DNA of 4,485 bases, from IMG/VR virus record IMGVR_UViG_2563366972_000007. One strand, written 5' to 3'. The notes below the pieces were generated by a model, which was not told where the DNA came from, searched no databases, and saw only the letters and a list, made by a program, of their open reading frames with translations. This document shows, piece after piece, positions 1-4,485 of this stretch; positions within the stretch are counted from its first letter, which is position 1, and every line of letters starts with the position of its first letter. Origin of the DNA: a virus. Taxonomy: Duplodnaviria > Heunggongvirae > Uroviricota > Caudoviricetes. A program made the position numbers and the translations under genes.

Positions 1-432
1 GTGGGATCATTAACGGATGTCGCCTCCCGCGTCATGCTGTCGTTTGGTGAGTTTGAATTCAGTATTGATACTGCTGCTTATAACGCCATGAAGCGCACGA
101 TGGAATGGCGATGGGATGAACAACAGCTTATCGGAAAAAACGACCTGCTGCAGTATACCGGCAAGGGGGCCAGAACAATAACCCTTGAAGGTATGGCGCA
201 CGCGGGATTTCGTGACGGTGTGGGAATGGATGCCCTTGATACACTGGTTCAGATGGTGGATGACAATCCGGCCCCGCATCTTCTGGTCTCGAGCACAGGT
301 GATGTGATGGGGTATTTCGTGGCAACCGCTTATTCAGATAACACCACGTCCTTTCTTCCCGGCGGTGCGCCGAAGAACAAAACGTTCACACTGGAGCTGA
401 AATACTATGGCGAAAAACTGGCGGACTACTGA
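1..432 (+). CDS. gpU: P2 gpU-like tail protein; 5' end uncertain because the ORF opens with GTG at the window edge and an in-frame ATG at 34 fits the family N-terminus better
   Basis: Seen: ORF in frame +1 ending with TGA at 430..432. From memory: the translation (MLSFGEFEF..WRWDEQQLIGKNDLLQYTGKGARTITLEGM..GYFVATAYSDNTTSFLPGGAPKNKTFTLEL) aligns along its length with P2 gpU (MLALGMFVF..YRWPSNSRIGKRDAFQFLGVGEENITLAGV..GMYVISRVSETGSIFFADGTPRKIDFTLSL). Not verified by search. Confidence 0.8.
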   Translation: MGSLTDVASRVMLSFGEFEFSIDTAAYNAMKRTMEWRWDEQQLIGKNDLLQYTGKGARTITLEGMAHAGFRDGVGMDALDTLVQMVDDNPAPHLLVSSTGDVMGYFVATAYSDNTTSFLPGGAPKNKTFTLELKYYGEKLADY

Positions 433-625
433 CGGCGATATGCTGGATGACATCTGCCAGAGACACTATGGCAGCGCCGGACTTAACCAGTCACTGGCGG
501 CGGTACTGGAGGCCAATCCCGGACTGGCTGACCTTGGTCCGGTCTATCCGGCAGGTGTGGAAATCGTGTTGCCGGACTGGGTGTATGAACCGGAGGAAAA
601 GGAGGCGTTTCAGTTATGGGACTGA
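407..625 (+). CDS. gpX: P2 gpX-like tail protein X (small LysM-like tail protein)
   Basis: Seen: 72-codon ORF with ATG at 407 overlapping the gpU 3' end by 26 nt; GGAG at 393..396 sits 10 nt upstream. From memory: LDDICQRHYG..AVLEANPGLADLGPVYPAGVEIVLPD matches P2 gpX (LDAICVRYYG..TVLAANPGLAELGAVLPHGTAVELPD). Confidence 0.85.
   Translation: MAKNWRTTDGDMLDDICQRHYGSAGLNQSLAAVLEANPGLADLGPVYPAGVEIVLPDWVYEPEEKEAFQLWD
599..605 (+). promoter_or_regulatory. Shine-Dalgarno sequence (AAGGAGG) for the gpD-like gene
   Basis: Seen: AAGGAGG about 10 nt upstream of ATG 616. Confidence 0.5.
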
Positions 626-1716
626 ATGAGTATCAGCCGGATTTCAGCCTGACAGCAGAGGGTGAGGATATCACGAAGGCCATAAAGCGGGGGCTGGCTG
701 AACTGCGTTATACCGATAATGGTGCGGCCACAAAGCGGGCCGATGAACTGATGATAACGCTGTTCAGTGAGAAGATGGCGTTGCCGCCGAAAGGCGCGGT
801 ATTGACGCTGGGGCTGGGATTTAACGGAAATCTGGTGAATAAAGGCAGTTTTACAGTCTGCCAGGTGGCAAGCGGTGGCCCTCCCCGCCGGATAACCATT
901 TATGCCACCGCAGCCCCCATGAATGCGTCAAAACATGGCGCAGACGTGACCGCACTGAAAACCCGCGCGTTCAGCGATATCACACTGGGCGACCTGGTGA
1001 AAACGATCGCCACTGAAAATAATCTGGTGGCGCGGGTCTCACCGGCGCTGGCAAAAATTCGTATCCCGTGGGTGATGCAGTCATCTGAATCGGATGCGTC
1101 CCTGCTGTCCCGGCTTGCAGGTATGTATGGTGCCACCAGTAAACCGACGAACGGCTACTGGTTATTTCTGGAGTATGGCGCATCACAGAGCGCAGGCGGC
1201 AGGGATGCGCCTGTAATGACCATCACACCGGATATGGTATCAGACTGGGATTACCGGGAGGGGGAGCGGCAGGGAGCATCCGGAGGCGGAAAAGGAACAA
1301 CAAAAAAAGGGAAAGTGGGTGTCCGGTATTTTGATACCCGTGACGGACGCACGCGTGAAGTTAAAGTGGATGTGGAGTCCACAGACAAGCGACATCCATT
1401 CACTCAGCCGGATCAGGATACAGCAAAACACTGCGCAGACTCTAAGGTTAAACGTGTGCAGAAAGCCGGACGCCAGATGACGATAACGTTGCCCTGCAGA
1501 CCAGCACTGCTGAAAGCTGGGGCGGAAATGCGTTTTATCACGCAGGGATTTGGGGTACGGGAAGATCATAACTGGCAGGCTGAGTCGGTGGAGTTTTCAC
1601 TGGCACCGGGGCAGGGATTTACGCTGAATCTGTCGCTGGCCACGGATATTTCCGCGAAAGGACAGGCATCAGGGAAGAAGAAAGCGGATAAAAAGGGCGT
1701 GAATTATTTTGGTTAA
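616..1716 (+). CDS. gpD: P2 gpD-like tail protein (late control gene D family; baseplate hub-type protein of contractile tails)
   Basis: Seen: 366-codon ORF with ATG at 616 overlapping the gpX stop by 10 nt, preceded by AAGGAGG at 599..605. Size and position (immediately after U and X) fit the gpD family. The family call rests on synteny and general resemblance, not an explicit alignment. Confidence 0.75.
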   Translation: MGLNEYQPDFSLTAEGEDITKAIKRGLAELRYTDNGAATKRADELMITLFSEKMALPPKGAVLTLGLGFNGNLVNKGSFTVCQVASGGPPRRITIYATAAPMNASKHGADVTALKTRAFSDITLGDLVKTIATENNLVARVSPALAKIRIPWVMQSSESDASLLSRLAGMYGATSKPTNGYWLFLEYGASQSAGGRDAPVMTITPDMVSDWDYREGERQGASGGGKGTTKKGKVGVRYFDTRDGRTREVKVDVESTDKRHPFTQPDQDTAKHCADSKVKRVQKAGRQMTITLPCRPALLKAGAEMRFITQGFGVREDHNWQAESVEFSLAPGQGFTLNLSLATDISAKGQASGKKKADKKGVNYFG

Positions 1717-1729
1717 TGTTTTCTGGATC

Positions 1730-1733
1730 AGGA
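1730..1733 (+). promoter_or_regulatory. Shine-Dalgarno sequence (AGGA) for the tail fibre gene
   Basis: Seen: AGGA 7 nt upstream of ATG 1741 in the 24-nt gap after the gpD stop. Confidence 0.5.
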
Positions 1734-1740
1734 AATAAAA

Positions 1741-3546
1741 ATGTCTGTATTAATTTCTGGTGTGCTGACTGATGGCGCAGGACTCCCCATGTCCGGATAC
1801 CATATTATTCTGAAAGCCCGGCAGAATACATCTGCAGTGGTCATGAGAACGGTGGCTACAGTGGTGACAGGGCCGACGGGAGAATATGCTTTTGAAGCAC
1901 AGACCGGAAGATATGATGTTTATCTTCGGTCGTGTATTGAAAGAGAATATTGTGTCGGTGATATTTCGGTTTACGACGACTCCAGGTCCGGCACGCTGAA
2001 CGACTTTCTGACTGCCCTTGATGAAGGCGATTTAAAGCCGGATGTAGTGAAACGCTTTGAGGAAATGGTGGCGCAGGCGCAGCAGAGCGCGAAAGCGGCA
2101 GCGGAAAGCGAACGACAGGCCTGGCAACATGTCGCTGATGCGCAACAAATTAAGAGCGACTGCGAGACGCTGGCGGATAACGTACAGCAGAACGCAGAAG
2201 CCGTTGCTGAAGATAAAAAGCACGTGGCACAGCTGTCTTCGCAGGTTGAGGATACCGCCGAAGAGGTCAGGCAGGATGCTGAAGCTGCCAGAAAGGCCGC
2301 ATCCGATGCGGAGCAGGCCAGGGATGAGATTGATACCGCATTATCAGCGACACTCAAAACGGCTAACCACCTGTCAGAAATTGCGGCAGAAGGCGAAGAG
2401 GCGCAACAGGAATCCCGCGATAATCTGGGACTGAAAAGCGCCGCTACAATGGAGCCACAGAGTGATATTTATGACCGGACAGAAGGCCGACTGGCGGTTC
2501 CCGGCATGTTCGGATTCGGGAAAATATTTTCCTATGACGACAGGACAGAGTTTGAAACAGAGGCTGATTTTCTACTGTGGGTAAAAAGGGCAAACCCCGG
2601 ACGCTATGCCGTTTATGCACGTACAAATGTGGTAATACAGGGCGTGCTGCTCAGTGGTACTGTTGACATTATCTGGCCAGAATATCAGCACAATCCCAGT
2701 CCGGTATATATACCTAAAATCATTATTTTCTATGGCATTAACGGCCATGTTTATTACAACCGTTACTGGACTGCCAGTGGTGGTTATCTGGTTGGCTGGG
2801 AGAACCTGAAGGTCAACGAGGCTTCACTCAGGGCACTGATTGAAACCCGCGCGCCACTAAACAGCCCGGCACTGACCGGAACGCCGACAGCGCCAACACC
2901 GCCAGATGATGCAGCAGGCACAGAAATAGCTAATGCGGCGTTTGTCCGCAAACTGCTCGCTGCACTGGTGGATTCATCTCCCGAAGCCCTTGACACGCTG
3001 AACGAACTGGCGGCGGCGCTGGGCAATGACCCGAACTTTGCGACAACCGTCACTAACGCGCTGGCGGGTAAACAACCACTCAGTGATGTGTTAACGGCAC
3101 TCAGCAACCTGACACAACGTGCTGACACGCTTCCGTACTTTAACACAGATGAATACGTCTCCCTTGCGCCCCTGTCAGAAAAGGGACGCTCACTGCTGGC
3201 GCAGGAAACGCCGGAAGCCATGCGAACAGTACTGGAGCTGAAAAGCGCCGCCACAATGGAGCCACAGAGTGATATTTATGACCGGACAGAAGGCCGACTG
3301 GCGATACCGGGGACACTTGGTTTTGGGGAAATTTTTCATATTAATGACAGGATTAGCTTTGACACCAGAGCCGAATTTGATACTTGGATAAGAGGCGCAA
3401 AACCGGGGCGTTATCTGGTTTATGCAAACCCCGGCATAGTGATACCAAAAGTGCTATTCAGTGGAATTCTTGAAATTATCTGGGCTTCAGCTTTAACTAC
3501 TACAACTAACGGCGTAAACAAGATTTATTTTTTTTTACAGTGTTAA
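1741..3546 (+). CDS. stf: Side tail fibre protein, lambda Stf-like N-terminal domain, Ala/Glu/Gln-rich coiled-coil shaft, conserved fibre motif, two receptor-binding-type modules; as encoded it stops prematurely at TAA 3544..3546 inside the second module
   Basis: Seen: 601-codon ORF, AGGA at 1730..1733 sits 7 nt before ATG 1741. From memory: the N-terminus (MSVLISGVLTDGAGLPMSGYHIILKARQNTSAVV..ISVYDDSRSGTLNDFLTAL) aligns with lambda Stf (MAVKISGVLKDGTGKPVQNCTIQLKARRNSTTVV..ITVYEDSQPGTLNDFLCAM). The central block APLNSPALTGTPTAP..EALDTLNELAAALGNDPNFATTVTNALAGKQP matches the conserved Stf/fibre motif APLDSPALTGTPTAP..DALNTLNELAAALGNDPDFATTMTNALAGKQP. Confidence 0.85.
   Translation: MSVLISGVLTDGAGLPMSGYHIILKARQNTSAVVMRTVATVVTGPTGEYAFEAQTGRYDVYLRSCIEREYCVGDISVYDDSRSGTLNDFLTALDEGDLKPDVVKRFEEMVAQAQQSAKAAAESERQAWQHVADAQQIKSDCETLADNVQQNAEAVAEDKKHVAQLSSQVEDTAEEVRQDAEAARKAASDAEQARDEIDTALSATLKTANHLSEIAAEGEEAQQESRDNLGLKSAATMEPQSDIYDRTEGRLAVPGMFGFGKIFSYDDRTEFETEADFLLWVKRANPGRYAVYARTNVVIQGVLLSGTVDIIWPEYQHNPSPVYIPKIIIFYGINGHVYYNRYWTASGGYLVGWENLKVNEASLRALIETRAPLNSPALTGTPTAPTPPDDAAGTEIANAAFVRKLLAALVDSSPEALDTLNELAAALGNDPNFATTVTNALAGKQPLSDVLTALSNLTQRADTLPYFNTDEYVSLAPLSEKGRSLLAQETPEAMRTVLELKSAATMEPQSDIYDRTEGRLAIPGTLGFGEIFHINDRISFDTRAEFDTWIRGAKPGRYLVYANPGIVIPKVLFSGILEIIWASALTTTTNGVNKIYFFLQC
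2431..2496 (+). repeat. Direct repeat copy 1 (66 nt) opening the first receptor-binding-type module; encodes LKSAATMEPQSDIYDRTEGRLA
   Basis: Seen: identical to 3238..3303 at 65 of 66 positions (t at 2445 versus c at 3252); sequence diverges sharply from position 67. Confidence 0.9.
3238..3303 (+). repeat. Direct repeat copy 2 (66 nt) opening the second receptor-binding-type module
   Basis: Seen: 65/66 identity to 2431..2496, same reading frame, 807 nt (269 codons) downstream. Confidence 0.9.
3528..3536 (+). other. T9 homopolymer at the frame-change point of the fibre gene (candidate slippage or phase-variation tract, or indel/sequencing error)
   Basis: Seen: nine consecutive T at 3528..3536. 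It lies inside the 29-nt interval (3518..3546) where frames +1 and +2 are both open. Reading the tract as T8 gives ..NKIYFFYSVNGAVYY.., which matches module 1 (KIIIFYGINGHVYY). Confidence 0.8.
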
Positions 3547-3631
3547 TGGTGCGGTTTATTACGCCCGTGGCACTTCTGGTGCCCCGGCATGGGAACTCTG
3601 GAGACGAACAGATAAGGAATTAATTGATTTT

Positions 3632-3922
3632 TTGTCCGGTACAGTTTATTCCGGCGGGCTGAATGCATCACCGGAGGCTGGCGGTATTGTTCAGGCAGCA
3701 TTTCGTTATCAGGATAAGCCCGGAGGATACACCCTGAGGCGAGGTGATGCTTTAAGTGGTTCACTTCTGAAGCCATATATAATTACAGTCGATGAAAGTG
3801 GCGAACAGACTCTTCATATTAAAGAGGAACATACGTTTCCCGGATATTACTGGAGTCTGACCTCCTATCCGTGGCTGAAAACGAGTGATTATATTCTGGG
3901 AATATTTATAAGGTATCGTTAA
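3632..3922 (+). CDS. Distal (C-terminal) part of the tail fibre, displaced into frame +2; not an independent gene
   Basis: Seen: frame +2 is open from 3518 to TAA 3920..3922 with no in-frame ATG (the ORF-track start at 3632 is TTG). Its translation from 3518 (FIFFYSVNGAVYYARGTSGAPAWELW..) is homologous to the continuation of the first fibre module in frame +1 (IIIFYGINGHVYYNRYWTASGGYLVGWENL..), so it is the natural continuation of the fibre past the T9 tract. Confidence 0.7.
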   Translation: MSGTVYSGGLNASPEAGGIVQAAFRYQDKPGGYTLRRGDALSGSLLKPYIITVDESGEQTLHIKEEHTFPGYYWSLTSYPWLKTSDYILGIFIRYR

Positions 3923-4485
3923 TGAACATTACAGATATAAAAAATCCTGTCAGCCTTGAACACGGGGCGATAAATTGCGAAATATTATTTGACGATATGG
4001 AGGAATATGTTCCCTATACCGCGACACCGACAGACAGCGATAAAACGGGGAAGCAGGTATGGCAGGAGCTACAAAGCGGTAAATGGGGTGAAATCGCCCC
4101 GTTCATCGTCACGCCGGAACTTATTTCGGCAGCGAAGAATGCCAAAAAGCGGGAAATTGAGGTGTGGCGTACAGAGCAGGAAGCGCAGCCGTTCACGTTC
4201 GAATGGAACGGTCATACCTGGAATGGTGGTCCTGACTCGATGGCGCGGCTTTATCCGGCAGTAATAGCATCAAAGTCTGACACAGCGCGAAAATCCATGA
4301 TATGGGGTAATGCGGAAAACCAGCAGGTGAAACTGTCTATGCAGAAACTGGATGAACTGCTTACTGCAATGGTTCAGGCACAGGTCGATCGCAATGATGA
4401 GATTTATCAGCGTCAGCGCGAGATGAAAGAAGCGTTAAATTCACTGGAGGATTTGAAGTCGATTAGGGATTTCAGGCTGGAGTAA
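3922..4485 (+). CDS. Putative tail fibre assembly/chaperone protein; family not recognised
   Basis: Seen: 187-codon ORF whose ATG (3922..3924) overlaps the fibre-frame stop TAA (3920..3922) in a TAATG junction, with AAGG at 3910..3913. The position directly after a fibre gene is where Tfa-type chaperones sit. I do not see the canonical Tfa C-terminal motif, so the function is inferred from context only. Confidence 0.45.
   Translation: MNITDIKNPVSLEHGAINCEILFDDMEEYVPYTATPTDSDKTGKQVWQELQSGKWGEIAPFIVTPELISAAKNAKKREIEVWRTEQEAQPFTFEWNGHTWNGGPDSMARLYPAVIASKSDTARKSMIWGNAENQQVKLSMQKLDELLTAMVQAQVDRNDEIYQRQREMKEALNSLEDLKSIRDFRLE

Follow-up and report, generated by a model that had tools for sequence, protein, structure and literature searches.

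A one-base split in a prophage tail-fibre gene of Escherichia coli KTE48: an ordinary frameshift private to the strain, or a base-calling error, rather than a conserved switch

A fibre gene interrupted by a frameshift has a precedent in lambda PaPa, where the frameshift in stf removes the side fibres (Hendrix and Duda 1992, as cited in a passage of PMC12617516). Interruption is the native condition of Citrobacter rodentium tssM1, whose two products are both needed, and Yersinia shows the same arrangement again (PMC4256274). Receptor-binding genes of Campylobacter phages contain polyG tracts that have been called hypermutable and a source of phenotypic diversity (Sorensen et al. 2021, as summarised in a passage of PMC10877375). 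In Escherichia coli, the indel rate climbs exponentially as homopolymers lengthen (PMC8510543), and RNA polymerase slips at runs of at least 7 T, with a bias towards poly(T); deletion slippage gave back ~10% in-frame reporter expression at T8 (PMC6260861). Many bacterial genomes show signs of selection against slippage at a run length of nine (PMC1088944).

The gene analyzed here resembles lambda PaPa stf, as compared with Ur-lambda, in that an accessory fibre gene of a temperate coliphage has become two ORFs through a one-base frameshift. As with stf, the two ORFs are colinear with one intact ORF and a single indel explains the split, the relatives are intact, a tail-fibre-assembly gene lies downstream, and other means of adsorption (here, perhaps, a PF12571 fibre set) would make the loss tolerable. 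It differs from stf in that the putative lesion lies in a T8/T9 homopolymer, in a PF08400-family fibre of a P2/phiP27-like myovirus prophage. With C. rodentium tssM1, which carries an A11 run (PMC4256274), and with the 9A/9T genes (PMC1088944), it shares an A/T run just before a premature stop and, as in slippage-rescued enterobacterial genes, a minority of transcripts one base shorter would restore the full-length protein. Unlike in tssM1, only one assembly shows the interruption, and the run is shorter (T9 against A11). As with the Campylobacter phage polyG tracts, homopolymer length in a fibre or receptor-binding gene decides whether the distal part is translated, but the tract here is A/T, 8 nt long, nearly always in frame and not conserved in homologues.

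The prophage tail region and its split fibre gene

The window, i.e., the whole stretch of 4,485 nt that was analyzed, is the beginning of a scaffold (KB733035.1, bases 1-4485) in the assembly of E. coli KTE48 (GCA_000352305.1). It covers the tail end of a prophage of P2/phiP27-like myovirus type, as judged by the upstream gene order in relatives, which comprises a second fibre set, sheath, tube, chaperone and tape measure. On the downstream side the prophage tail genes adjoin the host genes uspF, ompN and ydbK. The features of the window are as follows:

1-432, + strand: gpU tail gene, 3' part (Pfam PF06995, E 2e-27); the scaffold start cuts the gene
407-625, + strand: tail protein X, gpX (Pfam PF05489, E 3e-19)
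616-1716, + strand: gpD-like late control/baseplate hub protein (PF05954, E 4e-6, below gathering score)
1741-3546, + strand: tail-fibre gene, 5' reading frame, 601 codons (PF08400, phrog_2636)
2425-2619, + strand: internal direct repeat, copy 1, at the start of fibre module 1 (repeat family D1)
3232-3426, + strand: internal direct repeat, copy 2, at the start of distal module 2 (repeat family D1)
3518-3922, + strand: tail-fibre gene, 3' reading frame (frame +2), ~128 distal codons plus stop, from translation
3518-3543, + strand: overlap of open frames +1 and +2, 26 nt, bounded by the stops at 3515-3517 and 3544-3546
3528-3536, + strand: T9 tract; T8 in all intact relatives, codons TAT TTT TTT TAC (YFFY)
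3922-4485, + strand: tail-fibre assembly/chaperone-like gene, DUF4376 (PF14301, E 2e-14; phrog_1141, E 8e-83)

Since the scaffold begins within gpU, the GTG at position 1 is a false start; in relatives gpU has 162 aa and starts 57 nt farther upstream. An identical gpX protein was present in 77 blocks of the collection searched, and the position of the gpD-like gene matches that of gpD in related prophages. The fibre and DUF4376 genes are placed after gpD in the prophage, and direct reading shows the fibre stop and the ATG of the DUF4376 gene overlapping as TAATG at 3920-3924. The PF14301 match lies above its gathering score (54 bits against a cut-off of 25). In the prophages of relatives the second fibre set (PF12571 plus Caudo_TAP) sits upstream of the sheath gene and, given this other set, the fibre that starts at 1741 may be dispensable.

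The 5' part of the fibre gene is annotated as a protein of 601 aa (ELF99609.1/WP_001585687.1), with an N-terminal PF08400 domain above gathering score (E 4e-53, 179 bits against a cut-off of 26.6) and a match to the tail-fibre family phrog_2636 (E 2e-212). Its last residues are the non-native LQC, followed by the TAA at 3544-3546. In frame +2, a stop at 3515-3517 is followed by an open stretch that begins at 3518 and closes with the TAA at 3920-3922; the tail of this part is annotated as a 96-aa ORF at 3632-3922 (WP_148717941.1). A first-pass annotation of the sequence had described the T9 run, the frame +1 stop and the open frame +2, and direct reading bears out all three. It also held that the only overlap of the two frames contains the T run, which is so: they are jointly open only at 3518-3543, and therefore any net -1 nt change there restores the fibre gene. 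When one T was removed in silico, a continuous ORF of 726 codons with no internal stop was obtained, as had been predicted, and this is the length of the fibre gene called in relatives. The peptides across the junction are ...IYFFYSVNGAVYYAR in the full-length protein versus ...IYFFLQC in the truncated one.

The tract is the sole homopolymer of at least 8 nt in the window, on either strand; shuffles of the window gave an expectation of 0.29 T8 matches by chance. A run of at least nine A/T, the length taken from PMC1088944 as slippage-prone, is thus present at the frame junction, and the earlier statement that nine-T runs promote transcriptional slippage is correct (PMC1088944; PMC6260861).

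Tract length and fibre integrity in related prophages

Comparison of tract length in related prophages, proposed in the first-pass annotation, was carried out on loci gathered in several ways: through Tfa, gpX and gpD proteins identical to those of the window, through Tfa variants that are nearly so, from IMG/VR, and with a DNA pattern that admitted runs of T6-T12. The tract was T8, with in-frame read-through, in the 16 other loci with this length examined at the DNA level (L002, L003, L004, L005, L007, L010, L011, L015, L018, L019, L032, L036, L039, L041, L042 and L043). These loci span several flanking haplotypes and both forms of the fibre, i.e., the long form of 726 aa and the short form of 457 aa. 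Among ~18 loci in all, T9 was found solely in the window and T7 solely in one other locus (L027). The two close loci in IMG/VR both have T8. At the protein level, 17 distinct proteins, falling into two 90% clusters, are in frame through IYFFY, and the 601 aa together with the frame +2 tail are colinear with the intact 726-aa ORF of L002-L005, L010, L011, L018 and L032. The context of a variant of the 96-aa ORF (P0022) was reached through the neighbouring Tfa (P0073).

The T7 locus comes from the Logan assembly of SRR077223, an old read set, and has the same distal tip (98% nucleotide identity) on a different, PF12571-type N-terminus. A 5.19 Mb complete-genome contig carries the same Tfa (P0080) as this locus.

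More distant homologues, at 31-41% identity, have IIYY, LLFY, LTFY or LIFY in place of YFFY, and the following FY is conserved. Because YFFY is missing from these proteins, the T8 run is incidental, an accident of codon choice in one clade. The fibre tip itself is rare, since positions 3200-3960 had no megablast match among 5,426 complete E. coli genomes. Protein scans of genome contigs and of metagenomes each recovered a single relative, 37% identical; a metagenome scan with the DNA pattern gave no match, and the close clusters were not among the results of a protein search with the repaired module.

Over 10,485 nt, the closest relative (L004, GCA_018431885.1), which occupies the same insertion site, departs from KTE48 at 15 substituted positions and at a single indel, namely the extra T. 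This T is also the sole gap across the 4,485 nt of the window versus five relatives. The 384 nt that follow the tract (codons 599-726) match the intact alleles of L003 and L004 at every nucleotide, so the change is either very recent or not real. Among intact alleles pN/pS over the whole gene is ~0.3-0.45, which indicates that the intact form of the fibre is under constraint; the distal 128 codons alone contain too few changes for this measure.

Other copies are broken elsewhere. One metagenome assembly (L039) has T3 lengthened to T4 at 2356 and T6 shortened to T5 at 2707, yet T8 at the main tract; one protein (P0021) ends after ...TDKE; and L012, L014, L017 and L035 have large deletions that leave only remnants of the fibre. 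This pattern of damage across copies agrees with diffuse decay of prophages or with base-calling errors scattered among T runs, and lesions at such other sites do not indicate a site-specific switch.

Origin of the extra T

The insertion, its uniqueness, the intact T8 gene of the relatives and the lack of conservation of the tract are demonstrated. The reading that we favor, and regard as probable, is a non-programmed, strain-specific insertion of a single T (T8 to T9) at a hot spot of replication slippage. Given the exponential rise of indel rate with run length, the T8 encoded by TAT TTT TTT TAC is the likeliest site of a replication slip in the fibre gene and would be its most indel-prone position; a single slip would have added one T. 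That the insertion is recent is seen from the absence of decay downstream. Furthermore, ~22 kb of KTE48 sequence (loci L006 and L015), which contains A7, A8, T7 and T9 runs, shows no other homopolymer indel versus relatives. This argues modestly against a generally error-prone assembly. That the extra T is a genuine insertion and no miscall is our inference.

The main competitor, possible but in our judgment doubtful, is that KTE48 truly has T8 and an intact fibre gene of 726 codons, and that the extra T arose by a homopolymer miscall or by a consensus error between two copies. KTE48 does contain a second copy of the same prophage type (L015), on KB733034.1 and adjoining the hydrogenase-1 genes. 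This copy has T8, is 96-99% identical to the copy in the window, and its fibre gene is broken only by a run of N, a gap that an orphan contig of 1,021 nt encoding ELF95066.1 bridges at the protein level. The two copies are identical from 3448 to 3581 except for the tract, i.e., over ~80 nt upstream and ~45 nt downstream, the nearest copy-specific differences being at 3434, 3447 and 3582, where the window copy has G, A and C and the KB733034.1 copy A, C and T, and with such identical flanks reads of the T8 paralogue could be mixed with those of the window copy. The assembly is also fragmented at exactly this place, with the scaffold end at base 1, the N gap in the paralogue and the orphan contig. 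An artefact would equally explain why T9 is seen in one assembly against T8 in 16 loci, and nucleotide identity of the 3' part to intact alleles, with no downstream decay, is expected of it just as well. The sole other off-length allele, T7, is likewise from an old read set (SRR077223), and the indels at other short T runs in the metagenome assembly L039 look like base-calling errors. Against an artefact stands the rest of the ~22 kb from KTE48, in which an intergenic T9, an A8 and several 7-mers are read with no homopolymer discrepancy. A search for literature on strain KTE48 found none.

The first-pass annotation had set a fixed inactivating mutation or a sequencing error beside an ON/OFF or two-isoform switch. 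The former alternatives fit the data, and between them they take nearly all of the probability; the switch does not fit, as the split is not conserved, the tract is lost in distant homologues and length variants are rare. In its full form the switch would be an evolved contingency tract, in which replication slippage between T7, T8 and T9 toggles the distal tip ON and OFF and transcriptional slippage adds an isoform. We consider this highly improbable. It would account for the finding that T9 in KTE48 and T7 in L027 represent two independent and opposite length changes in the same tract among ~18 loci, with the downstream frame otherwise intact in both alleles; T runs this long do slip in E. 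coli transcription (PMC6260861; PMC1088944), and phase-variable homopolymer tracts in receptor-binding genes are on record for Campylobacter phages (Sorensen et al. 2021, in the passage of PMC10877375 cited above).

Several observations speak against such a tract. Two features of a contingency locus other than a homopolymer inside the reading frame, which is present here (T9 at 3528-3536), would be frequent length polymorphism among close strains and upkeep of the tract across homologues beyond coding need. Close strains show 16 alleles of T8 and one each of T7 and T9, so that the in-frame T8 is the rule (16/18 loci), and homologues at 31-41% identity have no YFFY codons, hence no run, and give no sign of a selected tract. 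For a switch in a host with working mismatch repair, a tract of this length is short. A nearby and presumably neutral T9, in the intergenic region between ompN and ydbK, varies similarly often, being T8 in L005 (1/7), so that the off-length alleles at the fibre tract (2/18) are about as frequent as at a site between genes. Other disrupted copies have their lesions at other sites, and the T7 and T9 alleles are both possibly errors. A related reading is that the T8 run of YFFY is a true hot spot of mutational and transcriptional slippage put to use by P2/phiP27-like prophages of E. coli, in which T7, T8 and T9 alleles would interconvert and slipping RNA polymerase would grade the level of the distal tip. 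It would amount to a coliphage fibre switch based on a homopolymer, comparable to the polyG tracts of Campylobacter phages, and we likewise see very little room for it.

Programmed recoding, by ribosomal frameshift or obligatory transcriptional slippage that sets a fixed ratio of 601-aa to 726-aa products as in Thermus dnaX or Citrobacter tssM, is barely credible: a slippery run stands right before the stop, the new frame encodes the conserved C-terminus and the layout is formally that of C. rodentium tssM1 with its A11 run (PMC4256274), but the split layout occurs in no relative, all of which are in frame, the ribosome would need to shift +1 where a U run favors -1, and the -1 frame closes after ~31 codons. 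Programmed -1 ribosomal frameshifting in particular was ruled out, since the direction needed is +1 and the relatives are in frame; nor do the data call for a stimulatory element.

Fibre modules and consequences of the truncation

If the extra T is a real insertion by replication slippage, as we favor, translation would stop 3 codons on and yield a 601-aa fibre without the last ~125 residues. Missing from this product would be the last part of the repeated module plus ~95 more residues at the C-terminus, and with termination at 3546 translation would stop 376 nt before the TAATG that the fibre gene shares with the assembly gene. Judged from the sequence, the truncated fibre would probably neither fold nor bind. 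The T9 allele is probably leaky and partially rescued by transcriptional slippage, since T runs of at least 7 make E. coli RNA polymerase slip: the polymerase would drop a U in a minority of transcripts, from which some full-length fibre of 726 aa could be made. Leakiness of this kind is a by-product and not evidence for a designed switch.

The importance of the locus extends little beyond annotation, the lesion being of a known kind. The RefSeq entries WP_001585687.1 (601 aa) and WP_148717941.1 (96 aa) represent a single fibre gene in two halves, for which the appropriate label is frameshifted gene or likely sequencing error. A real insertion would add another case in which a prophage fibre decays at a homopolymer, here probably with partial rescue through slipping RNA polymerase, and would offer a handy natural test of T9 deletion slippage in a late phage operon. 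The host-range plasticity of the phage would be concerned only if tract-length switching proved to be frequent.

The module affected can be placed from the internal structure of the fibre, whose domain boundaries were taken from the alignment of module 1 with module 2. The two copies of the direct repeat of family D1 are spaced by 807 nt, i.e., 269 codons. The frameshift is located in distal module 2, and the continuation of this module in frame +2 resembles module 1 (KIIIFYGINGHVYYNR vs KIYFFYSVNGAVYYAR; 57% identity over 111 aa), which upholds the earlier proposal that frame +2 encodes the homologous continuation of the second module. The distal module is putatively receptor-binding, as suggested by its distal position and by the tail-fibre-assembly gene that comes after it. 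In the 457-aa fibres of other strains the N-terminus is joined directly to module 2. Unlike in the mosaic fibres of P2 (gpH) and P1 (S), no invertible segment or cix site was found within the window; fibre diversity here comes from module duplication or deletion together with recombination, not from inversion. The gene nevertheless resembles the mosaic fibres of P2, P1 and the Rac/phiP27-type prophages in its segment and N-terminus matches: positions 2960-3080 match a conserved segment common to P1 S and P2 H, and the N-terminus matches the fibres of phiP27 and Rac-SA53.

Homopolymer lengths in the two KTE48 copies and the host flank

Prophages of this type occur twice in the KTE48 genome: the copy in the window, whose scaffold begins within gpU (window 1-432), and a second copy, L015, located as follows.

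KB733034.1 1,856,859-1,869,077: second KTE48 prophage copy, adjoining the hydrogenase-1 genes

In L015, the main T tract of the tail-fibre gene is T8. The fibre gene is interrupted there by a 460-N gap (L015 8091-8550), which is spanned at the protein level by an orphan contig of 1,021 nt (ELF95066.1, 339 aa). The L015 copy is probably intact. Homopolymers in the intergenic DNA of the host flank also differ by one base between loci: at the window's locus (L006), the run at 7064 in the ompN-ydbK spacer is T9, as against T8 in the related locus L005, and the run at 4749 in the spacer between the tail-fibre-assembly gene (Tfa) and uspF is A6, as against A5 in L002 and L005. These one-base differences serve as a rough neutral baseline for variation in homopolymer length.

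Modular architecture of the fibre

Window 2851-3248 contains matches, all within 2957-3080 and at 80-89% nucleotide identity, to a conserved fibre region common to P1 S, P7 S, P2 H and related phages; SerU-LTIIb stf matches over the whole of 2851-3248 at 79%. This segment is the usual mosaic junction in coliphage fibres. In searches against the PDB, fibre residues 1-93 matched a tail fibre protein (9e7m) and residues 397-462 matched the tail collar fibre gp4 (9d93). The fibre also contains an in-frame internal duplication.

Window 2425-2619: first copy of the repeat
Window 3232-3426: second copy, at a spacing of 807 nt (269 codons)

The two copies are near-identical over their first ~70 nt (2428-2496 vs 3234-3302). 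Fibres of 457 aa from other E. coli (P0016, P0019, P0020, P0024; locus L043) correspond to the long form without the 269 codons between the repeats. Recombination at the internal repeat probably interconverts the long and short forms.

The distal tip and its junction with Tfa

A megablast search of 5,426 complete RefSeq E. coli genomes with the distal tip (window 3200-3960) returned no match, although hundreds of these genomes match the N-terminal two-thirds of the window at 87-92%. Nearly all known instances of this rare allele come from draft assemblies. In one of the loci compared, L027 (Logan SRR077223 contig 186, 4001-4897), which belongs to a different P2-like prophage, a tip with 98% nucleotide identity to that of the window is joined to an N-terminus of the PF12571 (P2 gpH-like) type. 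The main tract of L027 is T7 (near L027 4805-4811), and the fibre is thereby cut short at 298 aa; a 300-nt gap is followed by the Tfa gene, whose product (P0080) is identical in a 5.19-Mb NCBI contig. In the window, the fibre stop overlaps the Tfa start as TAATG (3920-3924). This overlap suggests translational coupling of the two genes, and such coupling would be lost in the frameshifted allele.

Further lesions at the prophage end

A metagenome-assembled short-form fibre (L039; ENA ERZ28600418 scaffold_140) keeps the main tract at T8 and carries indels in two other T runs, T3 to T4 at 2356 and T6 to T5 at 2707, which together split it into ORFs of 244, 130 and 96 aa. These T-run indels account for P0022, one of the other 96-aa ORFs. 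P0021 terminates after ...TDKE, and therefore yet another lesion is implied. Several related prophages have a fibre gene that has shrunk to a remnant (131-147 aa or less).

L012, L014 and L017, ~7335-7990: fibre-remnant sites downstream of gpD
L035, 2835-3230: fibre-remnant site

In these four loci, deletions have either fused the fibre N-terminus with the end of Tfa or eliminated the fibre gene entirely. Decay at this end of the prophage is frequent.
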